Positions 1 to 16,736 of a stretch of DNA of 18,058 nucleotides are shown piece by piece. Position 1 is the stretch's first letter, and every line of letters starts with the position of its first letter. The notes below the pieces were generated by a model that saw only the letters and a list, made by a program, of their open reading frames with translations, was not told where the DNA came from and searched no databases. The stretch is from the IMG/VR virus record IMGVR_UViG_2521172733_000017; one strand, written 5' to 3'. Source of the stretch: a virus. Lineage: Duplodnaviria > Heunggongvirae > Uroviricota > Caudoviricetes. The position numbers and the translations under genes were made by a program.

Positions 1-309
1 GGTTCATGCTACCGGGCTAATGAAACACGCCAGTTCGCCCGGATGTTGGGACTTGAACCGAAGAACACGGCGGTGCGGAGTCCGGAGAGTAACGGAATAG
101 CAGAGAGCTTCGTGAAAACGATAAAGCGTGACTACATCAGTATCATGCCCAAACCAGACGGGTTAACGGCAGCAAAGAACCTTGCAGAGGCGTTCGAGCA
201 TTATAACGAATGGCATCCGCATAGTGCGCTGGGTTATCGCTCGCCACGGGAATATCTGCGGCAGCGGGCTTGTAATGGGTTAAGTGATAACAGATGTCTG
301 GAAATATAG
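1..309 (+). CDS. insD: IS3-family transposase OrfB (IS2 InsD-like), C-terminal fragment; the ORF runs in from upstream of the window
   Basis: Frame 1 is open from base 1 to TAG at 307-309; motifs [19 protein letters not shown] and [12 protein letters not shown] are typical of the DDE integrase-like domain C-terminus of IS3-family transposases. Confidence 0.75.
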
Positions 310-320
310 GGGCAAATCCA
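1..320 (+). mobile_element. Right end of an IS2-like (IS3 family) insertion sequence, truncated by the window edge; terminus ...GGGGCAAATCCA at 309-320
   Basis: Terminal sequence matches the IS2 right inverted repeat as I recall it (reverse complement TGGATTTGCCCCTATATTTCCAGACATCTGTTATCACTTAACCC); contains the 3' end of an IS3-family transposase ORF. Confidence 0.7.
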
Positions 321-744: not shown

Positions 745-1212
745 ATGCTTAAGACAAACAGTCTGCGAGAGTCCATGCTTCATGGGTGTCGGTGGTGCCA
801 GGCTAATCCCGAGAAATTCACCATTTTCGTGGAGAGCGGCAACATTGAAACGACCGGAGAAGCGCCCTCGTTTGTTTACCGCTATCAGATGGTGATGTTT
901 GTCATGGATTACGCCGGAGAGCTGGACGACCTCACGCTGCCGCTGCTGGCGTGGTTATCCGAAAATCAGCCACAGTTGTTGCTCAATCCGGAGCGTAATC
1001 AGGACATCAAATTTTCTGCCGTTATCAATGACGATGACAGCGCCGATCTCCTGTTTACGCTCCCCCTGCGGGAACGCGTTCGCATCACGCGCAACAGTCA
1101 GGGCACACCGCAGGCAGAACACCTGCCGGAGCCAAAACCCCGTCTGCCTTCTTCCGAAGGCGACTGGTCGCATGTATTCCAGGATGTGACGTGGGGTGAA
1201 AGCGATGGATAA
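745..1212 (+). CDS. R: P2 gpR-like tail completion protein
   Basis: 155 aa, same length as P2 gpR; N-terminus MLKTNSLRE... and LAWLSENQP motif resemble P2 gpR as recalled; sits immediately upstream of S-V-W-J. Confidence 0.7.
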   Translation: MLKTNSLRESMLHGCRWCQANPEKFTIFVESGNIETTGEAPSFVYRYQMVMFVMDYAGELDDLTLPLLAWLSENQPQLLLNPERNQDIKFSAVINDDDSADLLFTLPLRERVRITRNSQGTPQAEHLPEPKPRLPSSEGDWSHVFQDVTWGESDG

Positions 1213-1840
1213 GGCATTCACCCGCGTGGATGAAACCTTTGAGGCTATCCGCGACAGCCTGAATCAGCAGGCCATCAATAACATCGCCAGAAAGCTGGCA
1301 CAGGATTTACGTCGCGCCCAGCAGGCACGTATCCGGTCACAAAAAGCGCCGGACGGGACCGAATGGACACCACGCAGACGCCGCGTAACCCGGATACAGG
1401 AGCGCATTCGCTTTATCTGGAATAACGAAGCACGCACGCTGAAAAACTGGCATCACGACACAGGGAAATACGGGCGAACCATTACCGGGTGGGATGAGGA
1501 TAAAAACAATATCCGCACGTTTTACCGGGATGACATCGACCGTTTTCTGGAAATACGCACCCGGCGCATCAACCAGGACAGCACAAAGCGCGTCCCCATG
1601 TTCGTAAAACTGCGCACCGCCCGCTACCTGAAAGCTCGTGCAGATGCCTCCGGTGTGACGGTGGGTTACAGCGGCGTGGCCGCACGTATTGCACGCGTTC
1701 ATCAGTTCGGTGAGCGCGATCAGGTTGCGCCGGGCATTTTCACCGATTACCCGGTACGTGAGCTGTTGGGTATCAGCCAGGCAGATGAGCGCCTGATTTA
1801 TAACACGGTGCTGGGCCGGATTGCGGAGGCTGTACGGTGA
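1205..1840 (+). CDS. S: P2 gpS-like tail completion / virion morphogenesis protein
   Basis: ATG at 1205 overlaps the gpR stop (ATGGATAA) and the ORF stop overlaps the gpV start; position between R and V in P2 synteny. The track ORF begins at GTG 1196. Confidence 0.6.
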   Translation: MDKAFTRVDETFEAIRDSLNQQAINNIARKLAQDLRRAQQARIRSQKAPDGTEWTPRRRRVTRIQERIRFIWNNEARTLKNWHHDTGKYGRTITGWDEDKNNIRTFYRDDIDRFLEIRTRRINQDSTKRVPMFVKLRTARYLKARADASGVTVGYSGVAARIARVHQFGERDQVAPGIFTDYPVRELLGISQADERLIYNTVLGRIAEAVR

Positions 1841-2418
1841 GCGCAGAACTCATGCGACTGCTGAGCAACATCATCCGCACCGGGATCATCTCTGAAGTTG
1901 ATGAGAAGTCCTGGCGCGTGCGCGTTCGCAGCGGCGAACTGGAAACAGGCTGGTTGCGCTGGAACACCACGCGCGCGGGAGCCTTCAATGTGTGGCTGCC
2001 GCCATCACCAGGCGAACAGGTGGTAATTGCCTGCATTGGCGGCAACCCGGAAACCGCCATGATAATTGGCAGCCTGTGGAGTGATGCCAGTCCGGCCCCC
2101 GGCAAAAGCCTGAAAGAAATCGTGGTCAGCGCGCCGGATGGCGCGGTGTTCCGCTACGACGCAGACGCTGGCGCACTGAGCGCCAGCGGCATGAAAACAG
2201 CCACCCTGCAGGCATCCGTCAGCGTGACACTGGATACGCCCGTCGTGGAATGCACAAACCTTCTGAGAACGGCGACGCTTGACGTCACAAAAGGGGGAAA
2301 GATGAGCGGCAATATCACGCACAGCGGCGGCAATTTCACCTCAAACGGCATTACCGTGCATACGCATAAGCACGGTGGCGTTAAAGGTGGCAGCGATTCG
2401 ACAGGAGGCCCGCAGTGA
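1837..2418 (+). CDS. V: Baseplate assembly protein V (central spike)
   Basis: Motifs NIIRTGIISEVD, PSPGEQVVI, LDTPVVECTNLL and THSGGNFTSNGITVHTHKH match P2 gpV as recalled; GTG start at 1837 overlaps the S stop (ATG at 1852 is an alternative). Confidence 0.85.
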   Translation: MSAELMRLLSNIIRTGIISEVDEKSWRVRVRSGELETGWLRWNTTRAGAFNVWLPPSPGEQVVIACIGGNPETAMIIGSLWSDASPAPGKSLKEIVVSAPDGAVFRYDADAGALSASGMKTATLQASVSVTLDTPVVECTNLLRTATLDVTKGGKMSGNITHSGGNFTSNGITVHTHKHGGVKGGSDSTGGPQ

Positions 2419-2765
2419 CAACCCGCTACACAGGAATGAACCCGGACGGGACGGGAAACCTGAACGATATGGAGCACCTGAAACAGTCAGTCAGGGACAT
2501 CCTGATCACCCCGCTGGCAAGCCGGGTTATGCGACGGGAATATGGCAGCCTTGTGCCTGATTTGATTGACGAACCCATGAATAACACCACGCGTCTGCAA
2601 TGCATGAGTGCTGCCGTGATTGCGCTGACACGATGGGAACCCCGCATTGCCCTGGACGCCATCGACGTTGTCTGGAAGGCAGGAGGCCGCGCCGGGGTGA
2701 CGCTGTCGGGCACTGTCATGCAGACCATGCAGAATGTTGAATTAACCATCACGCTGAGAGAGTAA
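2415..2765 (+). CDS. W: Baseplate wedge protein W (GPW/gp25 family)
   Basis: 116 aa; N-terminus MTTRYTGMN... parallels P2 gpW MTARYLGMN...; GTG start overlaps the V stop (translational coupling). Confidence 0.85.
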   Translation: MTTRYTGMNPDGTGNLNDMEHLKQSVRDILITPLASRVMRREYGSLVPDLIDEPMNNTTRLQCMSAAVIALTRWEPRIALDAIDVVWKAGGRAGVTLSGTVMQTMQNVELTITLRE

Positions 2766-2768
2766 ATC

Positions 2769-3665
2769 ATGCCTGCTGTTGATCTTTCCCAGTTACCGGA
2801 ACCCGCCATCATCGCGGAGCCTGATTTTGAGGCAATTCTGGCTGACACAAAGGCCATGATGATTGCGTCCTATCCTGCCGAACAGCGTGAAGCCGTCTCC
2901 GCCGCGCTGGAGCTGGAATCAGAACCCCTGAACGTTATCGCTCAAACCATGTCGTTTCGTGAAATGCTGTTACGCCAGCGGGTTAACGAGGGCGCACGCG
3001 CCTGCATGTTAAGCCACGGTTCAGGGACAAACCTGGACAACCTCGCGGGCAATATGAACACAAAGCGCCTGGTTATCACTCCGGCAACGGATACCACCGA
3101 CGCGGTGATGGAGAGCGACACCTCGCTGAGACTGCGGGCGCAGCGGGCGTATGACGGCCTGAGTGTTGCTGGCCCGTCAGGTGCATACGAGTATTTTGCA
3201 CGCAGCGCCAGCGGTCTGGTGCGTGATGCGCGGGCCATCAGCCCGTCTCCGGCCTGTGTGACGGTTTCCATTCTGTCCACTGAAGGCGACGGCACAGCAA
3301 CGGAGGCGTTGCTTAATACCGTTCGCGCCGTTCTGAATGCAGAGGATACCCGCCCGGTGGCCGACCGACTGACCGTACAGAGCGCCAGCATCGTGACATG
3401 GCGGCTGAATGCAAAACTGTACTTTTACCCCGGCCCGGAATCCGAACCTATTCTGGCTGCGGCTGAATCGTCGTTCAGGAAGTGGCTGGCTGAGCAGGGG
3501 CTTATTGGTCAGGACGTGGCGTTGTCAGCCATTGCTGCCGCACTTCATGTGCACGGCGTGCAACGCGTGGAGATAATCGAACCCACACAGAATATGGCCA
3601 TCAGCGACATACAGGCGGCGCGCTGTGAGTCATTCACCATCAGCGAAGGTGGGCGTAATGAGTAA
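2769..3665 (+). CDS. J: Baseplate assembly protein J
   Basis: 298 aa (P2 gpJ is about 300 aa); position after W; RBS-spaced ATG 3 bp after the W stop. Confidence 0.8.
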   Translation: MPAVDLSQLPEPAIIAEPDFEAILADTKAMMIASYPAEQREAVSAALELESEPLNVIAQTMSFREMLLRQRVNEGARACMLSHGSGTNLDNLAGNMNTKRLVITPATDTTDAVMESDTSLRLRAQRAYDGLSVAGPSGAYEYFARSASGLVRDARAISPSPACVTVSILSTEGDGTATEALLNTVRAVLNAEDTRPVADRLTVQSASIVTWRLNAKLYFYPGPESEPILAAAESSFRKWLAEQGLIGQDVALSAIAAALHVHGVQRVEIIEPTQNMAISDIQAARCESFTISEGGRNE

Positions 3666-4188
3666 TTCACTGTTACCGCCATCAGCCAGCAATTTCATGC
3701 GTTGCGCCGAAGCTGTCGGAGCGCGCATTACAGACATCCCGGTAGACCTCAACACGCTGTGGTCACCGGACACCTGCCCGGTGCATCTGCTGCCTTATCT
3801 CGCCTGGGCATTTTCCGTTGACCGCTGGGATCGCAACTGGCCGGAAGAGACAAAGCGACAGGTGATTCGTGATGCCTGGCTGATACACCGACACAAAGGG
3901 ACCATCAGCGCACTGCGCCGGGCCATTGAGCCGCTGGGATACCTCATTCGCGTGTCTGAGTGGTGGGAATTCGGCGGAGAACCGGGAACATTTACTGTTG
4001 AAGTCGGCACGCTGGACAGTGGCGTGACGGAGGAAATGTATCTGGAAATGGAGCGGTTGATTGCTGATGCCCGCCCGGTCAGCCGCCACATGACAGGGCT
4101 GAATATCATTCAGGAAATTCCGGGGGATATTTTCGCAGCGGCGGCAACTTATGACGGTGAAGTTATTACCATTTATCCAGGCGATTAA
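3658..4188 (+). CDS. I: Tail protein I (baseplate)
   Basis: ATG at 3658 overlaps the J stop (ATGAGTAA), giving 176 aa, the P2 gpI length; directly precedes the tail fibre gene. The track ORF starts at GTG 3625. Confidence 0.8.
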   Translation: MSNSLLPPSASNFMRCAEAVGARITDIPVDLNTLWSPDTCPVHLLPYLAWAFSVDRWDRNWPEETKRQVIRDAWLIHRHKGTISALRRAIEPLGYLIRVSEWWEFGGEPGTFTVEVGTLDSGVTEEMYLEMERLIADARPVSRHMTGLNIIQEIPGDIFAAAATYDGEVITIYPGD

Positions 4189-4190
4189 GC

Positions 4191-6077
4191 ATGAGTACCA
4201 CAACACGAAAATTTAAAACCGTTATCACCGATACGGGTGCAAAAAAATTAGCTCAGGCAGCCGCGCCAGATGGTAAGCCTGTCCGCCTGACTCATATGGC
4301 CGTGGGCGACGGTGGCGGCACGTTGCCCACACCAGACAGTAAGCAGACCCGTCTGGTGCATGAGGTGTGGCGACACACTGTTAATCGCGTCATCCTGGAC
4401 GCAACACATCAGAACCGCATTATTGCGGAGCTGGTTATTCCTCCTGAAACGGGCGGATTCTGGATCCGGGAAATTGGTGTATTTGATGAGCACGGCGATT
4501 TAATCGCGGCGGGCAATACTGCCGAAAGTTACAAGCCAGCCGTTGCCGAAGGGTCCGGTCGTGCACAAACATTTCGCACCATTCTGACCGTATCCAGCAC
4601 TGCCACCGTGGCGCTTACCGTGGATAACACCATGGTGATGGCCACAGTGGATTACGTGGATGACAAACTGAAAGAGCATGAACAGTCACGACGTCACCCG
4701 GACGCCTCGCTGACCGCAAAAGGCTTTGTTCAACTCAGTAGTGCCACCAACAGCACGTCTGAAACACTGGCCGCGACATCGAAAGCGGTTAAGGCGGTAA
4801 TGGATGAAACGAACAAGAAAGCCCCATTAAACAGCCCGGCACTGACCGGAACGCCAACAACGCCAACTGCGCGACAGGGAACGAATAATACCCAAATCGC
4901 AAGCACGGCTTTCGTTATGGCTGCGATTGCCGCCCTTGTAGATTCGTCACCTGACGCACTGAATACGCTGAACGAGTTAGCGGCGGCGCTGGGAAACGAC
5001 CCGAATTTTGCGACCACCATGACTAACGCGCTTGCGGGTAAGCAACCGAAAGATGCCACCCTGACGGCGCTGGCCGGGCTTGCTACTGCGGCAGACAAGT
5101 TTCCGTATTTTACGGGGAATGATGTCGCCAGCCTGGCAACCCTGACAAAAGTCGGGCGGGATATTCTTGCGAAATCGACCGTTGCTGCCGTTATCGAATA
5201 CCTCGGTTTACAGGAAATGGTAAACAGGGCTGGTAACGCCGTGCAAAAAAATGGCGATACTTTGTCCGGTGGGCTTACTTTTGAAAATGACTCAATCCTT
5301 GCCTGGATTCGAAATACTGACTGGGCGAAGATTGGATTTAAAAATGATGCCGATGGTGACACTGATTCATACATGTGGTTTGAAACAGGCGACAACGGCA
5401 ATGAATATTTCAAATGGAGAAGCAAACAAAGCACCACAACAAAAGACCTGATGACGCTGAAATGGGATGCGCTAAATATTCTTGTTAATGCCGTCATTAA
5501 TGGCAGCCTTGGAGTTGGTACGACGAATGCGTTAGGTGGTAGCTCTATTGTTCTTGGTGATAATGATACCGGATTTAAACAGAATGGAGACGGTATTCTT
5601 GATGTTTATGCTAATAGTCAGCGTGTATTCCGCTTTCAGAATGGAGTGGCTATTGCTTTTAAAAATATTCAGGCTGGGGATGGTAAAAAATTCACGCTAT
5701 CCAGCTCCAACAACTCCACGAAGAACGTAGGGTTTAATTTATGGGGCGCTTCATCAAGACCAACTGTTGCAGAGCTTGGTGATGATTCAGGCTGGCATTT
5801 CTATAGTCAGCGAAATACAGATAACTCGGTGATATTTGCTGTAAACGGTCAGATACAACCCAGCAACTGGGGGAATTTTGATTCACGCTATGTGAGAGAT
5901 GTCAGACTTGGCACGCGTGTTGTTCAAACTATGCAAAGAGGCGTGATGTATGAAAAATCAGGCCATGCAATTACGGGGCTTGGCATTGTCGGCGAAGTTG
6001 ATGGCGATGATCCGGCTGTGTTCAGACCAATACAAAAATACATCAATGGCACATGGTATAACGTTGCACAGGTATAA
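4191..6077 (+). CDS. H: Tail fibre protein H: constant N-terminal part plus currently expressed variable C-terminal part
   Basis: 628 aa; N-terminal region with IAELVIPPETGGFW and the repeated QLSSATNSTSETLAAT motif, and C-terminus YINGTWYNVAQV, resemble P2 gpH as recalled; the gix-like crossover site lies in-frame at 5191-5216. Confidence 0.9.
   Translation: MSTTTRKFKTVITDTGAKKLAQAAAPDGKPVRLTHMAVGDGGGTLPTPDSKQTRLVHEVWRHTVNRVILDATHQNRIIAELVIPPETGGFWIREIGVFDEHGDLIAAGNTAESYKPAVAEGSGRAQTFRTILTVSSTATVALTVDNTMVMATVDYVDDKLKEHEQSRRHPDASLTAKGFVQLSSATNSTSETLAATSKAVKAVMDETNKKAPLNSPALTGTPTTPTARQGTNNTQIASTAFVMAAIAALVDSSPDALNTLNELAAALGNDPNFATTMTNALAGKQPKDATLTALAGLATAADKFPYFTGNDVASLATLTKVGRDILAKSTVAAVIEYLGLQEMVNRAGNAVQKNGDTLSGGLTFENDSILAWIRNTDWAKIGFKNDADGDTDSYMWFETGDNGNEYFKWRSKQSTTTKDLMTLKWDALNILVNAVINGSLGVGTTNALGGSSIVLGDNDTGFKQNGDGILDVYANSQRVFRFQNGVAIAFKNIQAGDGKKFTLSSSNNSTKNVGFNLWGASSRPTVAELGDDSGWHFYSQRNTDNSVIFAVNGQIQPSNWGNFDSRYVRDVRLGTRVVQTMQRGVMYEKSGHAITGLGIVGEVDGDDPAVFRPIQKYINGTWYNVAQV
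5191..5216. repeat. gix/hix-like recombination site (left inverted repeat) TTATCGAATACCTCGGTTTACAGGAA inside H
   Basis: Matches 21 of 26 positions with the reverse complement of the site at 7869-7894; strongly resembles Mu gixL (TTATCCAAAACCTCGGTTTACAGGAA) as recalled. Confidence 0.8.
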
Positions 6078-6080
6078 ATC

Positions 6081-6608
6081 ATGCAGCATTTAAAAAACAT
6101 TACTGCTGGCAATCCTAAAACAAAAGAGCAATATCAGCTAACAAAGAATTTTGATGTTATCTGGTTGTGGTCAGAAGATGGGAAAAACTGGTACGAGGAA
6201 TTAAAGAACTTTCAGGAAGACACAATAAAAATTCTTTATGACGAGAATAATATTATTGTCGCCATCACCAAAGATGCCTCCACGCTTAACCCTGAAGGCT
6301 ATAGCGTCGTTGAAGTTCCTGATATTACAGCTAATCGCCGTGCCGATGATTCAGGTAAGTGGATGTTTAAGGACGGGGCTGTAGTTAAGCGGATTTATAC
6401 GGCAGACGAACAGCAACAACAGGCCAAATCACAAAAGGCCGCATTACTTTCCGAAGCTGAATCAGTTATCCAGCCACTGGAACGCGCTGTCAGGCTGAAC
6501 ATGGCGACGGATGAGGAGCGCGCACGACTGGAGTCATGGGAACGCTACAGCGTTCTGGTCAGCCGTGTGGATACAGCAAATCCCGAATGGCCACAAAAGC
6601 CTGAATAA
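6081..6608 (+). CDS. G: Tail fibre assembly chaperone (gpG / Mu U-like)
   Basis: 175 aa immediately after H; N-terminal 22 residues nearly identical to the oppositely oriented paralogue at 6637-7170, as expected for U/U' chaperone pairs. Confidence 0.85.
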
Positions 6609-6613
6609 AAATT

Positions 6614-6633
6614 AAGGCCCGATAGCGGGCCTT
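6614..6633. terminator. Bidirectional hairpin between the convergent G and G' genes (AAGGCCCG-ATAG-CGGGCCTT)
   Basis: Perfect 8-bp GC-rich stem with a tetraloop, located between the two convergent stop codons (6606-6608 and 6637-6639). Confidence 0.55.
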
Positions 6634-6636
6634 GTC

Positions 6637-7170
6637 TCATTCAGGTTGTTCGGGAAACGTTACTGGCAGGCTGGAAGTGTCTGTAGATTCGACTTTCTGC
6701 GCAAAGAGCATCCACTCTGTTAATTTTTGTTTATTCTCGTCGGAAATGATGCCCAGCCGTAGCTGTGAGTCCCATAGCTGGGTTTTATCCCTGACGAGCT
6801 GTAGCAGGCTTTGCTTTTCATTTTCCGCCTGCTGCCTCTGCTCTTCCTCGGTATAAGTTCGCTTTACCACTACGCCATCTTTGAACATCCATTTACCCGA
6901 AATGTCAGCACGGCGATTTGCTGTAATATCAGGTAATTCAACGACGCTTGCGCCTTCCGGATTAATTGCTGAAACATCCTTTTCAATACAAATAATAACG
7001 CCGTTATGGTCATAGACCATTTTCAAAGTGTCTGGCTGGAAATTCTTTTGTTCCTCATACCAGTTTTTTCCATCATCTGAATAAAGCCATTTGATGTTAA
7101 ATTGCTTTGTTAGCTGGTATTGCTCTTTTGTTTTAGGATTGCCAGCAGTAATGTTTTTTAAGTGCTGCAT
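6637..7170 (-). CDS. Alternative tail fibre assembly chaperone (G' / U'-like), expressed after inversion
   Basis: 177 aa; N-terminus [22 protein letters not shown] shared with G, remainder diverged; lies inside the invertible segment on the opposite strand. Confidence 0.8.
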   Translation of the reverse strand: MQHLKNITAGNPKTKEQYQLTKQFNIKWLYSDDGKNWYEEQKNFQPDTLKMVYDHNGVIICIEKDVSAINPEGASVVELPDITANRRADISGKWMFKDGVVVKRTYTEEEQRQQAENEKQSLLQLVRDKTQLWDSQLRLGIISDENKQKLTEWMLFAQKVESTDTSSLPVTFPEQPE

Positions 7171-7172
7171 AA

Positions 7173-7886
7173 TTAAATACTCCCCGCGTTATACCACGTC
7201 CCATTAATGCAATACTGAATTGGCCTTGCCTGAGTTGTATCAATTAATTCATCACGGTTTCTGTTAACTGAACCCGTAACGACATAACCTGACCTGTCAG
7301 ACCAGCCGGGACCATTCCATGTCTGAACAGATGACAGACCGCCAAGGCGAATACCTGTAATAAACCTTGAGTTACATTCTGCCTGCGTGTATGCACCAAC
7401 ATCTCCCGCAGAGGGTTTGCGGGTCGTGGTGTAAAACTCTGACCAGTCGGCTTCAAAACCATAACCATCACGGGCTGAACGATAAAAAATACCGCCATTT
7501 TTATAATTAATCCGAAACTGAGCTGCAGGACAACTTCCTTCTCCCATATAAAAATGAATAATTAACGTTGATGCACCACTAATAGTTGCGTTATAGGCTC
7601 CGCTACTCCAGTTCCATCCAACTGCTTTATCATTCGCAACGGTGCTTCCTGTTTTCCCTAAGGCAAACGCACCAACATGACTTGCTTTTAATGTGATATC
7701 GGAGGAACCATCAAAAGCCACATTGCTTATTTTCCTGGCAGTTTTTAATTTTGCAGCTGTAGAAGCATTGCCGGATAGTTCACCTGAAAGGCCACCGCTG
7801 AATGTTTGTCGATTAGTCCAGGTATTCGCTGTACTGAGTAACGGTATTTTCTCCCCGCTTGTGCCGAGTTCTCGTAAACCGAGGTT
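7173..7886 (-). CDS. Alternative tail fibre variable C-terminal segment (H' / Sv'-like); no start codon of its own, fused to the H constant region after inversion
   Basis: The - strand frame is open from 7886 to the stop at 7173 and passes through the gix core encoding L-G-L, as H does at gixL; an in-frame TAA lies in the outer half of gixR (7887-7889); C-terminus CINGTWYNAGSI parallels the H C-terminus. The track ORF starts at 7721. Confidence 0.75.
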   Translation of the reverse strand, partial: NLGLRELGTSGEKIPLLSTANTWTNRQTFSGGLSGELSGNASTAAKLKTARKISNVAFDGSSDITLKASHVGAFALGKTGSTVANDKAVGWNWSSGAYNATISGASTLIIHFYMGEGSCPAAQFRINYKNGGIFYRSARDGYGFEADWSEFYTTTRKPSAGDVGAYTQAECNSRFITGIRLGGLSSVQTWNGPGWSDRSGYVVTGSVNRNRDELIDTTQARPIQYCINGTWYNAGSI

Positions 7887-7894
7887 TTAGATAA
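7869..7894. repeat. gix/hix-like recombination site (right inverted repeat) TTCTCGTAAACCGAGGTTTTAGATAA
   Basis: Inverted copy of the 5191-5216 site; resembles Mu gixR (TTCCTGTAAACCGAGGTTTTGGATAATGG) including the trailing ATGG; lies 55 bp upstream of the invertase start. Confidence 0.8.
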
Positions 7895-7948
7895 TGGCCG
7901 TTTCTGACCTGCATGGCATGATTTACGCTTTTGGACGGGAGATTCAGC

Positions 7949-8536
7949 GTGCTGATTGGCTATGTAAGGGTATCAACAAATGACCAGAATACAGACCTGC
8001 AACGAAACGCTCTTGTTTGTGCAGGATGTGAACAAATATTTGAAGATAAATTAAGCGGGACAAAGACAGACCGACCGGGATTAAAACGCGCTTTAAAGCG
8101 CCTTCAAAAAGGTGACACGCTGGTTGTCTGGAAACTGGATCGCCTCGGGCGAAGCATGAAACATCTGATTTCTCTCGTCGGGGAACTACGGGAGCGAGGG
8201 ATTAATTTTCGCAGTCTGACCGACAGCATAGATACATCTTCTCCAATGGGGCGTTTTTTCTTCCACGTGATGGGTGCCCTGGCTGAAATGGAACGTGAAT
8301 TAATTGTTGAACGTACACTGGCCGGACTGGCGGCAGCGCGTGCACGGGGGCGCACAGGCGGACGTCGACCGAAGCTGACAAAAGAACAGCATGAGCAAAT
8401 AGCAAGGCTGATCAAAAACGGGCACGACAGAAAACAACTGGCAATAATTTACGGCATTGGTATATCGACGATTTATCGTTACCACCCCGCAGGAGAATCA
8501 AGCGGAACAATAGAGAAGAGTCAGGAAACAAAATAA
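7949..8536 (+). CDS. Serine-recombinase DNA invertase (Gin/Pin/Cin/Hin family)
   Basis: From GTG 7949 the product begins MLIGYVRVSTNDQNTDLQRNAL... with the catalytic-serine motif YVRVSTNDQ and VVWKLDRLGRS, close to Mu Gin and e14 Pin as recalled; C-terminal helix-turn-helix region. The track's TTG start at 7931 adds 6 unlikely residues. Confidence 0.9.
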   Translation: MLIGYVRVSTNDQNTDLQRNALVCAGCEQIFEDKLSGTKTDRPGLKRALKRLQKGDTLVVWKLDRLGRSMKHLISLVGELRERGINFRSLTDSIDTSSPMGRFFFHVMGALAEMERELIVERTLAGLAAARARGRTGGRRPKLTKEQHEQIARLIKNGHDRKQLAIIYGIGISTIYRYHPAGESSGTIEKSQETK

Positions 8537-8565
8537 CCGCTAATCTGACCATTAGCGGTTTTTGT
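8536..8565. terminator. Bidirectional rho-independent terminator between the invertase and convergent gpU (ACCGCTAAT-CTGACC-ATTAGCGGT followed by TTTTT)
   Basis: 9-bp perfect stem followed by a T-run on the + strand and by TTATTTT on the - strand; sits in the 35-bp gap between the two convergent stop codons. Confidence 0.6.
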
Positions 8566-8571
8566 GTTAAA

Positions 8572-9066
8572 TCAGAACAGCCCTTTAACTGAACTGGCCG
8601 CGCTGTTAAGAGATGATGTCACCTTATCTTTGAAGCCGGACAGCATATCGCTGAACGATGAGGATTGCAGGCGCTCCCGCAAATCCTCATCACAGCGTTC
8701 AAGGGTCAGTGAAAATTCTATCTTTTTCGCCTTACCGTAGCGATCAAACTCGGAACGGGTCGTATTCGTTTCAGTCAGCACATACATGCCGTAAATCTGC
8801 CCGACACCATCAATCAGAGGCCAGGGGCGTCCTGTATATGCCTGCGTGGTCAGCAACGAAAGCGACACTTCGCCACCTGTAATTTCAGGATAAAGCACGC
8901 CAGAAAGCACAATGCGATCATCACCTGCACCGATATACTGCCAGCTTGCTGAGCGGTTAACGCGTTCATTTTTCACATGCCGCCAGCTTTTGTTTTGCTG
9001 TAACTGCTGATGCGGCAATGTGCGCAGCTCAAAAACAAACATGCCGTAGATCATCATCATGGCCAT
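8572..9066 (-). CDS. U: Tail protein U (P2 gpU family)
   Basis: 164 aa (P2 gpU is about 159 aa); immediately downstream of the tape measure gene on the same strand with GGAG upstream; position matches P2 T-U order. Confidence 0.75.
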   Translation of the reverse strand: MAMMMIYGMFVFELRTLPHQQLQQNKSWRHVKNERVNRSASWQYIGAGDDRIVLSGVLYPEITGGEVSLSLLTTQAYTGRPWPLIDGVGQIYGMYVLTETNTTRSEFDRYGKAKKIEFSLTLERCDEDLRERLQSSSFSDMLSGFKDKVTSSLNSAASSVKGLF

Positions 9067-9072
9067 GACTCC

Positions 9073-11916
9073 TCAATCTTTATCGTAAAAACTGCCACGT
9101 CCGGCACGGGCGCGCCGTTCCATCTCTGCCCTGACCATTTCACCGACCAGTTTCGCCAGTTCGCGGGGGTTCTGCGTAACAACGTTATGCAGATGGACAT
9201 GAATTTCACCACCAAATCCGGAGGCAACAGGCTCCCGGTTACGGGAAGTTACAGGAACTGATGCCACTGGCGATCGTATGGCCTCCGCCACCGGGCGGGA
9301 GCTGGCCGCAACAACAGGGACCAGCGCCGGAGGCAGCGGAGCCGGGACCACGGGTGTGATATTAATTGCGGGGGCAGGCTTACTGACCTGCGCAATCTTC
9401 CGCTCCTGCCACTCCCCACGAACAGCAAGTGCGCGGGGCAGGTTCTTAAAGACAATATCGCCGGGGCCAATGCGTTTTTTCGTCTCATCAACCAGCTTAC
9501 CTGTGTTATCAGCAATTTTGCTGAGTCTGCGTAGCGTCCCGGTATTGCTGTCTGTGAGCGGTTTGTTGTCTTTGGGTTTATCACCTCCGGTGCCATTGCC
9601 ATTTTCCACAGGCTTCGGCGGATTGATTTTCGCCAGGTCCCCCTGAAGCAAGGCAACCTTGTCCTGAAGAATGGCCGCACGCTGTGCGTCTTCGATTTTC
9701 TTGCGCGCCCTTTCCGCTTCATCCGGAAGGACGCCAAGTTTTTCAAGTATCCACGCCAGCGTATCCAGCAGCATTTTTGCAGGTGTCAGAACAAGTTGTA
9801 ACGCACCGCCAAGAACGTTACCGAATATCTCGCCAGCACTGGTACATTTATCCAGCGTTTCCTTGCTGGACTCCATCGGTGACAGCAGCGATTTAAACCA
9901 GTTAAACACCTGGCTGATCCCGCTTCCGATTGCGTCAAAAACAGGACCAAACCGTTCAAAGGTTTCGCGCAACGGGGTCAGCCTTTCCATAATTCCGCTG
10001 AACACCCCGACAAAAAATGCCCTGATGGGATCCCAATGTTTCCAGATAAGAATGGCAGCTCCGGCAAGCGCAGCCACGATAAGACCAACCGGACTGAACA
10101 GCGCCCCGATAGCACCTCCCAGCAAAGAAACGGAACCCGTCACCATTCCCCATAGTGCTGGCAGGAGCCTGACAGCATTCATTGATCCGATCAGGAGGGA
10201 AAAACCAAGACGCAGTTTTGCCAGCGGGCCAGCAAGCACACCAAGAGCAAGCGACAATGAGCCTACGGTTGCAGTCACTGCCAGCAGCGCACCGCCTGCA
10301 ATCAGTAGCTGGCGCGTCAGTACAGGATGGGCCTGCGCCAGTACCGTCACCTTTGAGACCACCCGTGTTAGCCACTGCGTGACAGAACGCAGCGGACCGT
10401 CAACCAGATCACTGATGCGAATACGAAGACCTTCCCATGCGCTGTCGAGATTTTTCAGGTCGCCATCAAGGTTGTCGGCCATAACCTTTGCCGTGCGTTC
10501 AGCCTCACCGCGTGCGCCCTCAAGTTCTTTTCTCAGTTTGGGTAAGGAACCGTCACCCGCCGCATCAACGAGTGCCATAAACGATGTGAAAGCCTCTTCC
10601 CCGGCGATGTCCTTAAAGAAGGATACCCGGTCAACTTCCCCGTATTTGCGGGTAGCTTTATAAAGGTCAGCCAGCAGATCTTCCATCGGGCGCATTTTGC
10701 CCCCGGCATCCGAGACGGACACGCCCAGCTCTTTCAGAGCTTCTGCCGCCGCCTTTGGCGGTGATGCCAGACGAGCCAGGCTGGCACGCATTGCCGTCCC
10801 GGCATCACTCCCTCTGATGCCCATATTCGCCAGCACGCCCGCCATCGCTGCGGCCTGCTCCAGCGATATTCCCAGCTTACCCGCCACCGGACCTGCATAT
10901 TTCATGGTTTCGCCCAGTGCGCGAAGGTCAGTGTTGGTACGGGTAAACGCTGCGGTGAGTGTGTCACCGACCCGGTCCATCTGGTCAGCAGAAAGGCCGA
11001 ACTGCGTCAGGATATTTGAGCCAATATCTGCCGTCTCGCCGAGATCCATACCGCCAGCCGTTGCCATGCTCAGCACGCCGGGAAGCGCAGCCTGAATGGC
11101 CTGCGGAGTGAAGCCAGCCATTGCAAGAAATGCCTGTCCACTGGCGGCATCGCCTGCGGTGAACTGCGTTTCAGAGCCCAGTTTTAACGCCTGCTCACGC
11201 AGCGCCTTAAACTGCGGGCTGTTCTGGTCGATTCGCGTCAGTGCCTGAACGCGGGACATCTCTTTGCCGAACCCGATCGCAGGCTGCAAAAAACGCCCGG
11301 CAGCATAGCCGCCCGCCGCTGCCGCACCAATTGCCAGTGCACCACCTGTTTTCAGTTTTCCCGCTGTTTCCTGCGCGCGCGAATACCGCTCACGCGCCCG
11401 CGTTACACGCGCAAGCGCCTGCCGTTCGCGTTCAAGCTGGTTGTTGTACTGTTCGGTGCGTCTGATGGCCTGCTGGATGGTGTTATCGCTGCCTGTCAGG
11501 GAAATGCCGTGGCGTTTCAGCTCTCCGCCAAGCTCCCGCATTTTCTGAATTTCCCGTGTGCGCGATTCATTCAGGCGTTCAAGCCGGGTGCTTAACTGCT
11601 GCATCAGCTTTTGTTGTTTTTCGCTGAGCACTGTACCCGTGCGTTGTAACTGATTAAGGGCGTTAAGCTGGCGTCGTGCTTTCACGATACCCGCATCCGC
11701 TTTACTGACAGCGTCGCGGGCGCGCTCAAATGAACGCGCCTGACGCTCGAGATTTTTGATCGCCCCCTGCGTTCGCTGGATGGAGTCACCAAACTGCCCC
11801 ATCAGGCGGCGGGCGTTTTCGGCAGGCCGGGTCAGCCTGTCAACGGCGCTGAAAGCGACCCGGATGTCAAGAGTCTTCATTATCTGCATTCCCGCTGCGA
11901 AGTGCCGCCCGCTCAC
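9073..11916 (-). CDS. T: Tail tape measure protein (gpT)
   Basis: 947 aa; coiled-coil-rich N-terminal region, central hydrophobic and Gly/Ala-rich segment, located after E/E' and before U. Confidence 0.85.
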   Translation of the reverse strand: MSGRHFAAGMQIMKTLDIRVAFSAVDRLTRPAENARRLMGQFGDSIQRTQGAIKNLERQARSFERARDAVSKADAGIVKARRQLNALNQLQRTGTVLSEKQQKLMQQLSTRLERLNESRTREIQKMRELGGELKRHGISLTGSDNTIQQAIRRTEQYNNQLERERQALARVTRARERYSRAQETAGKLKTGGALAIGAAAAGGYAAGRFLQPAIGFGKEMSRVQALTRIDQNSPQFKALREQALKLGSETQFTAGDAASGQAFLAMAGFTPQAIQAALPGVLSMATAGGMDLGETADIGSNILTQFGLSADQMDRVGDTLTAAFTRTNTDLRALGETMKYAGPVAGKLGISLEQAAAMAGVLANMGIRGSDAGTAMRASLARLASPPKAAAEALKELGVSVSDAGGKMRPMEDLLADLYKATRKYGEVDRVSFFKDIAGEEAFTSFMALVDAAGDGSLPKLRKELEGARGEAERTAKVMADNLDGDLKNLDSAWEGLRIRISDLVDGPLRSVTQWLTRVVSKVTVLAQAHPVLTRQLLIAGGALLAVTATVGSLSLALGVLAGPLAKLRLGFSLLIGSMNAVRLLPALWGMVTGSVSLLGGAIGALFSPVGLIVAALAGAAILIWKHWDPIRAFFVGVFSGIMERLTPLRETFERFGPVFDAIGSGISQVFNWFKSLLSPMESSKETLDKCTSAGEIFGNVLGGALQLVLTPAKMLLDTLAWILEKLGVLPDEAERARKKIEDAQRAAILQDKVALLQGDLAKINPPKPVENGNGTGGDKPKDNKPLTDSNTGTLRRLSKIADNTGKLVDETKKRIGPGDIVFKNLPRALAVRGEWQERKIAQVSKPAPAINITPVVPAPLPPALVPVVAASSRPVAEAIRSPVASVPVTSRNREPVASGFGGEIHVHLHNVVTQNPRELAKLVGEMVRAEMERRARAGRGSFYDKD

Positions 11917-12396
11917 GCCAGCTAACCACTTCGCCGGGCGTCATCATGAAGATTTCGGCGGGCGACCAGTTAAAAATGGCGGCAATATCCGCCACCAGAT
12001 CTTCGATGTGCTCAAAGCACACAACCGTGATCAGGCTTCCGTCGCCTGTTCGTTCTTCCCGCCAGAGTCCGCACCGCTCAAAAAATTTACGGCAACCACA
12101 CATAACTGAATAAAGTCACGGGATGCCATTTTTTTGATCGTCACTTCATCCAGTCGCGGTGATGTCACGCGTGACAGCAGCGTAAACATGGATTCCGCTT
12201 TCAGATTCAGCACATCAGACAGCGACAAATCTCGCAGAGATCCAGCCTGCTCAATAGCTCCGGTGATCTCCACATACGTGATTTTTTCGCCGCCTCGCTC
12301 AATTGGTTGGGTAAGTTTTACGCCACGCTCACTGGTTTCTTTCACAGTGTCAGCAACGACCGTGTTTTCGTTATCGATGTTTTTCGTCTCTTTCAT
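11867..12396 (-). CDS. Tail assembly chaperone E+E' made by programmed -1 ribosomal frameshift at T TTT TTG (+ strand 12079-12085)
   Basis: The -1 frame ORF (11867-12103) overlaps the 3' end of E and the start of T; the slippery heptamer is the one P2 uses for E/E', as I recall; arrangement is conserved in tailed phages. Confidence 0.7.
12031..12396 (-). CDS. E: Tail assembly chaperone E (zero-frame product)
   Basis: 121 aa between the tube gene FII and T; AAGGAG RBS 7 nt upstream of the ATG; contains the T TTT TTG slippery heptamer near its 3' end. Confidence 0.8.
   Translation of the reverse strand: MKETKNIDNENTVVADTVKETSERGVKLTQPIERGGEKITYVEITGAIEQAGSLRDLSLSDVLNLKAESMFTLLSRVTSPRLDEVTIKKMASRDFIQLCVVAVNFLSGADSGGKNEQATEA
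12079..12085 (-). promoter_or_regulatory. Programmed -1 frameshift slippery heptamer T TTT TTG (read on the - strand)
   Basis: Heptamer is in the correct phase (aaT TTT TTG = N F L in the E frame); the -1 frame continues ...VNFFERCGLW... into E'. Confidence 0.65.
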
Positions 12397-12450
12397 CAGG
12401 AAACTCCTTTCAGTCAGAGGCGACGCACTGCGCCGCCTGCATATTACTTA

Positions 12451-12963
12451 TCAGCCAAGCCCGAGCGCGGAACGGATGCGATCGGGCACAATGTCCTTGC
12501 CGTCCTTCCGGTAAATGAAGTTCAGCAGGTCAATCTCCCACAACGGGCGATCGTTAACACTCAGCTTGTAGTAGGTGTTTTTAATGGCGTAAGTGTGTGA
12601 TGTGGCTTCGCCCTGTTTGGCTTCCCCCATATCAATTTCCGTCACACGTCCGCGCATTTCGACTTCATACAGATCGCTTTCTGCATCGGTGTAGTATTCA
12701 CCCGCAAAACGCAGCAGCGTGCCGTCAATCGTGCCGCCATACTTAAGGAACAGCTCACGAACTGCCCCCCCCATGACAAAGCTCGCATCAAGCGCGGAGT
12801 CGTCCAGACCGAGATCAATACTTACCGCCCCCATCATGCCGCCCCCCCGGTAGCTGTCGGTTTTGCGCGTCAGCTTAGGCAGAGTGACGGACGTCACCTT
12901 ACCCACTTCGTTTTCACCATCCACAAACAGCGTAAAAAAGCGAAGATGTTTTGGCACAGCCAT
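12451..12963 (-). CDS. FII: Tail tube protein FII
   Basis: 170 aa; motifs SVTLPKLTRK and DLGLDDSAL match P2 gpFII as recalled; start overlaps the FI stop (ATGA). Confidence 0.9.
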   Translation of the reverse strand: MAVPKHLRFFTLFVDGENEVGKVTSVTLPKLTRKTDSYRGGGMMGAVSIDLGLDDSALDASFVMGGAVRELFLKYGGTIDGTLLRFAGEYYTDAESDLYEVEMRGRVTEIDMGEAKQGEATSHTYAIKNTYYKLSVNDRPLWEIDLLNFIYRKDGKDIVPDRIRSALGLG

Positions 12964-14147
12964 CAGGCACCTCCCAGCACCGCAAATGCGGGTTCAAAGT
13001 ATTCATCAGTAAACGTCTGGTAAAGCTCCATGTCTTCCAGTGGCGGAACGGGCGTATATTTGTAGCGAATACGCACACGCCCCTGACGTAAATCCGTGGT
13101 GCTGTTATCCACCACGTCATACCAGCACTCCGCGCCAATCAGTTTCCCGGCAGTAACCAGTGAATCCAGTTTTGCCCTGATGGCACTGATAACATCCTTC
13201 ACGTTCGCAGGTGTCAGTGGACTGTCGATGGTTTCAAACTGCGCTTCCGCAATTGAATCAGCCAGCACCTGTGCGGTTCGGGTATACACCTCAAAGATGT
13301 AGGCGTTCGTTTCCGGTGTGCGGTTGCCCCAGAAGCGGAACCCGTTGCGACGAATAATGGTCGTGATTTCTTTGTTGTTGAGGCTGTTGGCATCACTGTC
13401 TTCGGCCTGTAACGACCAGAACACATGCCTCGACATCCCCAGCACATTTTTAACCGGAACGTTGGACAGTGATTTGTGCCATCCCTGCTCATGGTCAATG
13501 TACGCACGAAGACCGCACGCATAGGCAGGCGCGGGGAACGTTTCGTTTTTGCCACTTTTCGGGTTGTAGGCGATGAAGTCCGGCCATAAGAGCATCACCT
13601 CACGTTCGTTGAATTTCTGGCGGTAGGTAATCGCCTCAGCCATCGTGTTACAGCCGTGACATGTGGCATACACAAACGCGCGCAGTTTACCCGCAATCAC
13701 GCACAGGGATTTTGTTACCGCCTCCGTGTCCAGCTCCGGCGCGGCCAGAATACGCGGACGGTATCCGATGCTTTCATCCTGCTCTGCAACAAGCAGCGCA
13801 TACATCCCCGTATAGCTGCCGTCAGATTCAGAACCACCGATAACCAGTTGATCCTGCGTTTTTCCGTCTTCTTCTTTGTGTTCAGCCACGCGAACGACGA
13901 TCACCTTTGTGCTCACCTGGTCTGCGATGGCCTTAAGCGCACGATAAAGCGTCCCCGTTGTTCCGCATTTTCCCAGCACGTCATTGACGCGGGTCAGCAG
14001 TGTGGGCTTGTTCAGCGGGAACAGCTCCGCGTCCGCATCATCCGCCGTTGCCACGATACCGATAACACTGGAATCAACATCATTAATCGCTGTTACCAGG
14101 TCGGTACTTTCCGTAACACGGGCACCATGAAAACGAGTTTCACTCAT
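12963..14147 (-). CDS. FI: Contractile tail sheath protein FI
   Basis: 394 aa; extensive motif-level match to P2 gpFI as recalled (DADAELFPLNKP, PRILAAPELDT, GKLRAF, WPDF, HEQGWHKSLSNV, IRRNGFRFWGNRT, YTRTAQVLAD, YKYTPVPPLE). Confidence 0.9.
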   Translation of the reverse strand: MSETRFHGARVTESTDLVTAINDVDSSVIGIVATADDADAELFPLNKPTLLTRVNDVLGKCGTTGTLYRALKAIADQVSTKVIVVRVAEHKEEDGKTQDQLVIGGSESDGSYTGMYALLVAEQDESIGYRPRILAAPELDTEAVTKSLCVIAGKLRAFVYATCHGCNTMAEAITYRQKFNEREVMLLWPDFIAYNPKSGKNETFPAPAYACGLRAYIDHEQGWHKSLSNVPVKNVLGMSRHVFWSLQAEDSDANSLNNKEITTIIRRNGFRFWGNRTPETNAYIFEVYTRTAQVLADSIAEAQFETIDSPLTPANVKDVISAIRAKLDSLVTAGKLIGAECWYDVVDNSTTDLRQGRVRIRYKYTPVPPLEDMELYQTFTDEYFEPAFAVLGGA

Positions 14148-14304
14148 AGCTCCAGCCCCTTGTATCCGTTAAATGATTCAGCAACAATCATCACCCACCA
14201 CGCGCGTAATCTCACCCCTGCGCCGTTCTCCCGCCACGGCGACAACAAAAAGCAGTAACCCCTTCCGCACGCACATGCGACCATGCCGCACAGGGAGGGA
14301 ACAG

Positions 14305-15413
14305 ATGACCGACACCACCATGCAATTGCTCAGCCAGGGCACTTACCCCGTGAAAATGCCGGATTTTGATATTCTCGCCGAGGGTAAAACGCTGTCCGGC
14401 GTGGCAGACCGCCTGATGAACCTGTCACTGACCGACAACCGGGGATTTGAGGCGGACCAGCTCACCATCACGCTGGATGATGCGGATGGTCAGTTGCAGC
14501 TACCGCCACGGGGCGCGCGCCTGACGGTTCTCATTGGCTGGAAAGGAGAACCGCTGACAGAAAAAGGCACTTACATTGTTGATGAAATCGCTCACGAAGG
14601 ACCGCCGGACAGGCTGACTGTTTCAGCCAGAAGCGCAGATTTTCGGGATGAATTTAACGTTAAACGTGAGGTGTCCTGGCATGATGTGACCGTTGAGCGC
14701 GTGGTATCTGCCATCGCTCATCGGTACGGTCTGAAACCGCAAATCAGCGAAATGCTGATGGATATCGAAATCGACCACGCCGACCAGACCGAAGAAAGCG
14801 ATATGTCCTTCCTTACGCGCATGGCGGAAATGCTGGGCGCAATCACCACGGTAAAAAGCGGCAATCTGTTATTCATCATGCCAGGTGGTGGCGTGAACGC
14901 ACAGGGCCAGCCGTTGCCCTCGTTCGCCATTACACGCAGCAGCGGCGATCGCCATCAGTTCCGTATTGCTGACCGCGAGGCGTATACGGGGGTACGCGCC
15001 TACTGGCTTGATCTTAATTACGGGAAAAAGAAAAAGTCAGCGTGAAACGCCGTAAACCACCAAAACCCAAAAAGGAGAAAAGCAGCAGCCGTGAAGGTGA
15101 TTATATGGAAGGCGCGGAAGGCAATGTGTTTGTGTTACGCAAGACTTATCAGAACGAGCAGGCAGCAAGACGCGCAGCGGCGGCAAAGTGGCAGCAGCTA
15201 CAACGCGGAGCCGCATCATTCTCCATCACGCTGGCATGTGGTCGTGCAGAACTCTACCCCGAAATGCATGGCACGGTAACAGGATTTAAAAGCGAGATTG
15301 ATAATCAGGACTGGATTATTGCAAAAGCCGAGCACACCATCGATAACAGCGGCTTTACCACGCAGCTTGAGCTTGAGGCAAAAATCTCGGAATGGATAGC
15401 AGAAACAGAGTGA
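14305..15413 (+). pseudogene. D: Tail protein D (P2 gpD, late control D family) split by a frameshift in an A-rich tract (segments 14305-15045 and 15042-15413)
   Basis: N-terminal segment carries LSLTDNRGFEADQL and SWHD motifs of gpD; the C-terminal part continues in the -1 frame (...GAASFSITLACGRAELYPE..., SGFTT) after the Lys-rich linker; frame break at gggaaaaagaaaaag (15022-15036); RBS GGGAGGG before ATG 14305. Confidence 0.75.
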
Positions 15414-15455
15414 GCAACTTAGAATAGCAGCAGCACCACGTTAAGGGAGGTCGCT

Positions 15456-15716
15456 ATGTTCCGTTGTCCGCTTTGTGGCGCATCTGCCCGTATCCGCACC
15501 AGTCGTCCTGAAAATGATTCAAACACCGTGCGGCAAAAGTATTACCAGTGTAACAACCTGGAATGCGGCGTATGCTTCTCAACACTGGAAGCTTTCCATA
15601 AATTCACATCAAAACACGCCTCCGGCGTTCACTCTTCAGAAGGTATCCCGTGGCATGAGCTGCCAGCTTCACACAGGGGAAACAATCAGATGAGTTTGCC
15701 TTTACCTCAGAATTAA
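15456..15716 (+). CDS. ogr: Ogr/Delta-family zinc-finger late-gene transcription activator
   Basis: 86 aa; MFRCPLCGASARIRTSR...YYQCNNLECGVCF carries the Cys-x2-Cys...Cys-x4-Cys finger and resembles P2 Ogr; AAGGGAGG RBS; positioned after D at the prophage right end as in P2. Confidence 0.85.
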   Translation: MFRCPLCGASARIRTSRPENDSNTVRQKYYQCNNLECGVCFSTLEAFHKFTSKHASGVHSSEGIPWHELPASHRGNNQMSLPLPQN

Positions 15717-15725
15717 CAGGCAGAA

Positions 15726-15754
15726 TTGCCGGAGTAACAAAAAAGCGATAGATT
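15726..15754 (+). promoter_or_regulatory. Candidate sigma70 promoter (TTGCCG, 17-bp spacer, TAGATT) for the hok-like transcript
   Basis: Good -35/-10 hexamers with 17-bp spacing about 150 nt upstream of the hok-like ORF; predicted transcript to the terminator at about 16168 would be roughly 400 nt, typical of hok mRNAs. Confidence 0.4.
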
Positions 15755-15907
15755 ACGCGCGGGTGCCTTTCGGCTGATGGTCGGAGGGAATACCCGAAGG
15801 CCAGATGTGGAAAGGCCCCGGAAAACATTTCTGTTTAACCGAGGCCCTAACATATCTACCTTAAGCAAGTGATAGGTTAGCGCCTCTCCAACAAAGGAGC
15901 AAGCGCT

Positions 15908-16048
15908 ATGTCGCAAAAATCGCTTACGGCCATCACGTTCTGCGTGACGGTAATCCTCATCATCTGGATGCTACACGGTTCGCTGTGTGAAATACGGATG
16001 AGCTTCTGGGGAGCGGAGTTTGCGGCGTTCTTACAGTGTAAGCAGTAA
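15908..16048 (+). CDS. Hok/Gef-family type I toxin-antitoxin toxin (small membrane peptide), HokA-like
   Basis: 46-aa ORF below the track's size cutoff: MSQKSLTAITFCVTVILIIWMLHGSLCEIRMSFWGAEFAAFLQCKQ; hydrophobic transmembrane helix followed by the SLCEIR...E-AAFL-C motif of Hok-family toxins (compare HokA ...DSLCELHIKQESYELAAFLACKLKE as recalled); AGGAG RBS 8 nt upstream. Confidence 0.65.
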   Translation: MSQKSLTAITFCVTVILIIWMLHGSLCEIRMSFWGAEFAAFLQCKQ

Positions 16049-16136
16049 GGAAACCGCGACGGGGGAGCAATCCCCCGTCAATCGGTTGCTAAGGTTGGCT
16101 GAAGTGGCACCCTATCTCACAGACATGAACAACAAA

Positions 16137-16168
16137 CCCGCAGCGTAAGAACTGCGGGTTTTCTTTTT
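16137..16168 (+). terminator. Rho-independent terminator (CCCGCAG-loop-CTGCGGG then TTTTCTTTTT) ending the hok-like transcript
   Basis: 7-bp GC-rich stem, 8-nt loop and T-rich tail on the + strand; an additional perfect 9-bp hairpin (GACGGGGGA-GCAA-TCCCCCGTC) lies at 16058-16079. Confidence 0.6.
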
Positions 16169-16251
16169 GGAACTATCACTAGCTAGTGTACCGTTAACGG
16201 CACATAATGCTCGCACAACAAACCTGTTAAAAGAGATTACTCAGCATTCTC

Positions 16252-16518: not shown

Positions 16519-16736
16519 ACCGATACACTCTATTACTAACCAATCATAGTCCACATCATAAAATCGAGATGAGGAGTACAATACCTTTAACAAGAAGGTG
16601 TCATAACGATAATATGTCGTGCAATTCATCAAAAAAAAGATCTATATCAAAGAGATAGAACTCTTATCAGTGCTTCAGACATCGGCATTCGAGGCAGCAG
16701 AAAAACAGTAAATCTGACGAATTTGCCTTTTCCCAA

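Follow-up and report, generated by a model that had tools for sequence, protein, structure and literature searches.

An invertible tail-fibre segment of the Mu G type in a P88-like prophage of Escherichia coli

Known invertible fibre segments and the P88-like locus

Invertible tail-fibre segments are textbook elements, described as the G segment of phage Mu, the C segment of P1 and the P segment of e14. We analysed a stretch of caudoviral DNA of 18,058 nucleotides (nt), the IMG/VR record IMGVR_UViG_2521172733_000017 (hereafter the window), in which a 2.65-kilobase (kb) segment carrying two tail-fibre C-termini and two fibre chaperones is flanked by two inverted crossover sites of 26 base pairs (bp) and followed by the gene of a Din-family DNA invertase. 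An earlier note on this DNA, made from the sequence alone, had proposed an invertible tail-fibre switch at this place. We conclude that the locus is very probably a two-state host-range switch of the Mu G-segment type, carried by a P88-like (Xuanwuvirus, P2-related) prophage of E. coli. The switch itself is already known, and annotations of the same module exist for P88 and for hundreds of prophages of E. coli.

The G segment of Mu, with its Gin invertase and gix sites (found also in D108), exhibits the same layout as the present locus: a constant fibre part, a site, Sv-U, U'-Sv', a second site and the invertase gene. The nucleotide identity with Mu is about 91%, in three aligned pieces within window positions 5191-8328 that cover 54% of the query, and the similarity starts exactly at the left site and stops at the boundary between the catalytic and DNA-binding parts of the invertase. 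The core dinucleotide GA is the same in both. However, Mu is a transposable phage, whereas the host phage here is P2-related with a constant fibre part of the P2 gpH type; the tip on the plus strand is of the P2 H type (91%) and not of the Mu S type (48% over the last 90 amino acids, aa), and the Mu segment is longer, with 3.0 kb compared to 2.65 kb. The C segment of P1/D6 (Cin/cix) and the P segment of e14 (Pin) follow the same Din-family design, and the D6 sites fit the same consensus, but the context of the cix core is of the AA/TT type (...AAACCAAGG...) compared to GA here, the D6 invertase lies on the opposite strand relative to the segment and the phage backbone of P1/D6 is different.

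The H-G pair of P2 shares 86.7% nt identity with the H-G pair of the window over positions 4419-6608. After G, P2 carries a terminator and fun(Z), with no invertase, second arm or second chaperone annotated there, in agreement with the earlier statement that P2 itself has no invertase. P2 proper (Peduovirus) has the order H-G-(Z/fun)-FI-FII-E-T-U-D on one strand, whereas in the window the invertase and a second cassette follow G and the genes FI-U are on the opposite strand. This is the arrangement of P88 and Xuanwuvirus (Peduoviridae; for example P884B11 and Citrobacter phage Shae_phiSM), which have the same order I, H, G, G', H', invertase, with U-T-E'-E-FII-FI on the opposite strand and then D. 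Window positions 787-16168 are colinear with P88 at 96-97% nt identity, including the reversed FI-U block. The left crossover site of P88 is identical to the one found here and the right site differs at 2 positions. The P88 record annotates a 'DNA invertase', two fibre genes and two assembly genes, and an invertase with paired fibre and assembly genes is likewise annotated in P884B11, Shae_phiSM and RefSeq E. coli genomes. The two phages differ in the length of H (764 aa in P88, 628 aa here), and P88 is not alignable to the middle of the variable arm Hv (about 5492-5871) and to the proximal part of the second arm H' (about 7671-7874); the window has in addition, unlike P88, a DUF6645 cargo gene interrupted by the insertion sequence IS2, and a split gpD gene. 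According to the P88 host-range paper, P88 shows only 5% coverage with P2 (PMC5285337). The earlier view of a switch grafted into a P2-like tail module therefore stands as far as the mosaic is concerned, but the mosaic is not specific to this prophage, being the standard P88-like (Xuanwuvirus) architecture.

For P2-like prophages of E. coli, sequencing and polymerase chain reaction have detected inversion of the fibre segments (PMC4272514), and the gene families enriched in systematic screens for inversions include fibre genes (PMC9881135). In the P2-like prophages of enteropathogenic E. coli E2348/69, both orientations of the fibre segment coexist and the invertases are hin-like; one of these prophages is a three-site shufflon, compared to only two sites here (Goldberg et al. 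2014, PMC4272514).

The prophage occupies 15.4 kb of the window, next to the tRNA-Leu/Cys/Gly-pgsA-uvrC locus, and its tail, baseplate and head genes are of the P2 type. The replication and lysogeny half lies beyond the window, where the near-identical prophage of E. coli strain 15A has a P2-type capsid, terminase and integrase.

Crossover sites, fibre arms and invertase

The whole window was scanned with the Din (Gin/Hin/Cin/Pin) crossover consensus TTCYNNNAAACCNNGGTTTNNGATAA, allowing up to 3 mismatches. Only two matches were obtained, the left site with 1 mismatch on the minus strand and the right site with 0 on the plus strand (Table 1), compared to 0.01 expected by chance, and 3 matches were reached in 0 of 200 shuffles. 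In the same way, no third site that would make a three-site shufflon was found in the window within 3 mismatches of the consensus. Both sites are imperfect dyads with 12-bp half-sites around an identical 2-bp core, as in the Din family, and the core reads TC (5203-5204) in the left site and GA (7881-7882) in the right one, which corresponds to the same core in inverted orientation, as inversion requires. The sites are contained in a 30-nt inverted repeat, 5187-5216 / 7869-7898, that is 83% complementary, and their inner half-sites differ, with ...TTTACAGGAA compared to ...TTTACGAGAA (CAGGAA vs CGAGAA). Besides the consensus scan, the conservation of these sites with Mu gix and with the sites of D6 (annotated as cix by homology with P1) supports the two inverted gix-like sites of the earlier note, and the objection that they might be unlike the known gix, hix or cix sites fails.

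Table 1 Positions in the window of the crossover sites, fibre genes, invertase and neighbouring elements
Feature	Position	Strand	Remarks
IS2 3' end (TnpB C-terminus, terminal repeat)	1-319		inserted in DUF6645 cargo gene
H, tail-fibre gene, whole	4191-6077	+	628 aa, intact
Constant N-terminal part of H (residues 1-333)	4191..5190	+	outside invertible segment; common to both fibre forms
Left crossover site (gixL-like), inside H	5191..5216	-	TTATCGAATACC-TC-GGTTTACAGGAA on + strand; encodes ...IEYLGLQE; 24/26 identical to Mu gix
Hv, currently expressed variable C-terminal arm	5217..6077	+	P2 gpH-type receptor-binding tip; ~287 codons
G, fibre assembly chaperone matched to Hv	6081..6608	+	currently expressed; Pfam Caudo_TAP
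GC-rich hairpin between convergent chaperone genes	6614..6633	.	terminator scan: terminator-like, - strand only
G', silent alternative chaperone	6637..7170	-	Pfam Caudo_TAP
H' (Hv'), silent alternative fibre C-terminal arm	7173..7868	-	open frame from site to 7173, ~232 codons
Right crossover site (gixR-like)	7869..7894	+	TTCTCGTAAACC-GA-GGTTTTAGATAA; 55 bp upstream of invertase start; 23/26 identical to Mu gix
Din-family serine DNA invertase	7949..8536	+	195 aa, GTG start; Pfam Resolvase (PF00239) and HTH_7 (PF02796)
Hairpin terminator between invertase and convergent gpU	8535..8560	.	bidirectional; terminator scan, both strands; inverted repeat

The segment between the sites showed a GC content of 0.41-0.49, compared to 0.53-0.61 in the flanks, and carries Hv-G on the plus strand and G'-H' on the minus strand. 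The constant part of H contains the Pfam Phage_tail_fib N-terminal domain and a Phage_fiber_2 repeat and is 72% identical at the aa level to residues 4-383 of P2 gpH. Hv is 91% identical to residues 380-669 of P2 H, with its first 110 aa being 85% identical to residues 171-280 of Mu S, and has a structural match to Mu S (PDB 5yvq, E=8e-75). The chaperone G shows 94% identity with Mu U and 92% with P2 G (PDB 5yvq_B, E=2e-108). For G', the identity amounts to 96% with Mu U' and to 98% with the U' protein of D6, a P1-like phage. Over its last 165 aa, H' shares 91% identity with the tip of Mu S' and 90% with D6 S', and H' matches an S/S' fusion structure (PDB 8ju3, E=6e-101) and Pfam gp37_C. These alignments, which the earlier note had suggested for H' and G', show that the minus-strand frame is conserved fibre sequence. 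They agree also with its description of an AT-richer segment holding a second fibre C-terminus and a second chaperone on the opposite strand, and of an H whose constant part and C-terminus are P2 gpH-like. An A-run (6604-6612) flanks the other side of the hairpin between the two chaperone genes, as seen in the repeat listing.

On the plus strand, the fibre frame crosses the left site as ...AVIEYLGLQEM..., whereas AII*NLGLRELG... is read on the minus strand across the right site, the outer half of which contains a stop codon. H' has no start codon or promoter of its own. Because of this stop codon and the lack of an N-terminus of its own, H' is silent in the present orientation, and with H intact the pair currently expressed is H-G, as had been supposed. 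Once joined to the constant part of H, the frame of H' reads ...EYLGLRELG...; the L-G-L that the core region had been said to encode is present on both arms (NLGLRELG and EYLGLQE). The inverted sequence was then built in silico by exchange at the core of both sites. The flipped fibre consists of one uninterrupted frame of 573 aa, compared to 628 aa for the native form, with ...AVIEYLGLRELGTSGEK... across the junction. The expected swap of roughly 290 C-terminal residues is correct with regard to the frame and to the exchange of the chaperone, and it applies to the outgoing arm (287-290 aa), but the incoming arm is shorter, with 232-235 aa. The segment exhibits in this way the organization of the Din segments, two fibre C-termini with their matched chaperones on opposite strands and both fusions in frame.

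Automated annotation names the silent arm inconsistently: a full 'tail fiber protein' in some records, and routinely a 'hypothetical protein' or a fibre pseudogene marked as 'incomplete' or partial. Examples are L005 8206-9042 and L006 8206-9042, both in flipped relatives, and L001 18982-19692 in NZ_CP077477.1.

The invertase belongs to the invertase subfamily of the small serine recombinases, as the Din enzymes do. It is 86% identical to Mu Gin over its whole length, and its best PDB matches are the Gin structures 4m6f and 3uj3 (E about 1e-101). In the catalytic domain 118 of 120 residues are identical to Gin (98%), with S9 (in MLIGYVRVSTNDQ) and M114 present. Its start, placed earlier at TTG 7931, was corrected to GTG 7949, as in Mu gin. 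The sequence is nearly identical to Mu from the right site up to coding nt 195. The Fis-dependent sis enhancer is said to have been located by Kahmann and colleagues, in 1985, in the 5' part of Mu gin. Since only 3 positions of these 195 coding nt deviate from Mu gin, any element that Mu has there is retained, and the present gene is predicted to carry the Fis-dependent recombinational enhancer in its 5' part. A crude sigma-70 promoter scan found no promoter upstream of 7949, which is no argument against expression of the invertase.

The invertase gene is a mosaic: near-identity to Mu gin ends at about codon 127, and the part at window 8328-8536 is different. The C-terminal DNA-binding domain encoded there may be more Hin-like.

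Orientation in related prophages and rival explanations

The prophages of E. coli FDAARGOS_1252 and O145:H28 12E115 hold the segment in the opposite orientation, at 99.4-99.5% identity. The native window gave three alignment blocks with both relatives; the middle block is reversed, and the edges overlap at 5187-5211 and 7874-7898. The window flipped in silico aligned to both in one ungapped block of 4,783 nt at 99.4-99.5% identity. In the flipped genomes, the inner half-sites have swapped partners while the outer halves are unmoved, and the constant part of H keeps its place. This half-site pattern is the footprint of a reciprocal exchange within the conserved core. Near-identical prophages therefore carry the opposite orientation predicted by the earlier note, their breakpoints lying within the 26-bp sites, and the segment is found in both orientations with exchange at the core, as in the Din family.

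Complete E. coli genomes were searched with junction probes, the flipped left one consisting of 400 nt of constant H and 400 nt of H' and the right ones of cassette and invertase; a junction was scored as present with at least 80% coverage. The left junction was native in 355 genomes and flipped in 325, and the right junction native in 374 and flipped in 129, counts that mix lineages and cassette types and are hence not rates. Native and flipped junctions are both common among the complete genomes of E. coli.

A near-identical relative is the prophage of E. coli O111:H21 strain 15A (NZ_CP077477.1), to which the window is 99.98% identical, with 1 mismatch and 2 single-base indels. The RefSeq assembly of this strain contains the near-identical prophage in both orientations, at 100% identity. 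The IS2 of the window is absent from all three 15A prophage copies.

A possible objection to a functional switch is that it is a fossil, with sites or invertase inactive in this copy and with orientation differences that would go back to old events or to recombination between prophages. Several observations weigh against an active switch, besides the mixed nature of the junction counts. The two sites are imperfect repeats, only 22/26 identical to each other, whereas those of Mu are identical. The DNA-binding domain of the invertase shares only 37 of 61 residues with Gin (61%), so that the inversion rate or bias could differ; a chimeric invertase, with a Gin catalytic and a non-Gin DNA-binding domain, acting on non-identical sites might conceivably result in a biased or differently regulated switch. 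The prophage may moreover be defective, as the gpD split at 15030, a frameshift, and the nearby IS2 at the left end of the window are possible signs of decay. However, the invertase open reading frame is intact, with the nearly unchanged Gin-type catalytic domain and its S9, and Din invertases present elsewhere in the cell can act in trans. Relatives of 99.4-99.5% identity differ in orientation with a clean reciprocal half-site exchange, so that the flips must be very recent on the scale of sequence divergence, and the strain 15A assembly holds both orientations with no difference in sequence. We regard the fossil explanation as improbable.

Two other explanations dispense with site-specific recombination, and each of them appears extremely improbable. 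The segment contains a long imperfect inverted repeat, formed by the chaperone and fibre-tip genes (361 nt, 75% identity, 6077-6437 / 6814-7174), and homologous recombination between these copies might have produced the orientation differences. An identity of 75% makes a poor RecA substrate, however, and inversion at this internal repeat would leave the fibre arms unexchanged relative to constant H, whereas the observed breakpoints are at the 26-bp sites of the segment ends; the half-site exchange footprint excludes recombination at the repeat. The two sites could also be taken for a chance inverted repeat without recombination function, and H' and G' for remnants of a duplicated fibre module, since the region is rich in short inverted repeats, with 22 pairs listed. 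This was rejected: the sites match the 26-bp consensus with 0-1 mismatch against the 0.01 matches expected, and they sit exactly at the frame-preserving position, beside a homologue of Gin, and the breakpoints observed for the inversion map onto them.

In the two-state switch that we favour, dimers of the invertase would bind both inverted 26-bp sites, and host Fis at the putative enhancer in the 5' part of the invertase gene would assist recombination, a dependence predicted from the likeness to Mu. The central 2 bp would be cut and the strands rotated, with the result that the 2.65-kb stretch from about 5203 to 7882 is inverted. The late baseplate/fibre operon, whose promoter lies outside the segment, would read into it from the fixed constant part of H. 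The present orientation would give the 628-aa fibre with the P2 gpH-type tip together with chaperone G, and after inversion the 573-aa fibre with the Mu S'-type tip would be made together with G'. A population of lysogens would in this way release virions with two receptor specificities, and inversion is probably ongoing in the source strain.

The assembly NZ_CP077477.1 contains about three partial prophage copies with duplicated host flanks, pgsA and the tRNAs occurring three times. Its palindromic join at 26807-31510 consists of constant H, the segment and reversed constant H, and at the origin of the record a truncated reversed invertase is joined to the right gix site. This palindromic structure probably arose from misassembly of long reads. 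With both orientations among the reads, the assembly graph would be expected to offer just such a path across the segment. That the multi-copy palindrome is real, generated by invertase action between gix sites of separate prophage copies, seems very doubtful to us; if true, a fibre invertase would drive large chromosomal rearrangement or amplification.

State of the host prophage and meaning of the switch

The gpD gene (14305-15413) is split into two frames by the absence of an A at 15030 in the run GGGAAAAAGAAAAAG, relative to the 15A RefSeq sequence and to P88. Conversely, H is intact in the window and frameshifted in strain 15A at a G-run (5869). Both indels are in homopolymers and may be sequencing errors rather than real pseudogenes. 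Because the gpD split and IS2 suggest a possible defect, it is uncertain whether this copy produces phage and can thus show a host-range phenotype.

In FDAARGOS_1252 and O145:H28 12E115, the constant part of H exceeds that of the window by 264 nt (88 aa), the difference being located at window 4718-4795, and P88 also has extra sequence near this position, of about 265 nt according to the alignment offsets. This indel falls in a repeat region, so that the length of the fibre shaft varies within the lineage.

Flanked by the invertase and gpD, the reversed block at 8572-14147 (sheath, tube, E, E', tape measure and U) is not on the strand of the baseplate and fibre genes but on the other one, an arrangement conserved in P88. 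The same invertase was considered as the maker of this reversed FI-FII-E-E'-T-U block, which is unsupported in the present sequence, as no gix-like sites are present at its ends. No convincing repeat joins 8537-8571 to 14148-14312, and the best pair, 8261-8286 / 14330-14355, falls within coding DNA.

The DUF6645 cargo gene is located between lysC and tail gene R, with its last 133 codons or so (320-721) in the window; it is absent from P88 and uninterrupted in all three 15A prophage copies. A hok/gef toxin gene is found near the right end of the prophage (window 15900-16700), many relatives cease to match at about 16120-16170, and between this end and the tRNA-Leu/Cys/Gly cluster there is a stretch of low GC content (0.39) with a small hypothetical open reading frame.

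The practical value of recognizing the switch is in annotation, where the silent arm is mislabelled, and in assembly, as mixed orientations can tangle long-read assemblies, which is probably what happened in NZ_CP077477.1. A second built-in tip and a switch are also relevant to the host-range engineering of P88. The paper on the host range of P88 never mentions inversion (PMC5285337); its silence on the switch is a gap in discussion and not in knowledge. For the phage, the switch would allow it to alternate between two receptor-binding tips and hence between host ranges.

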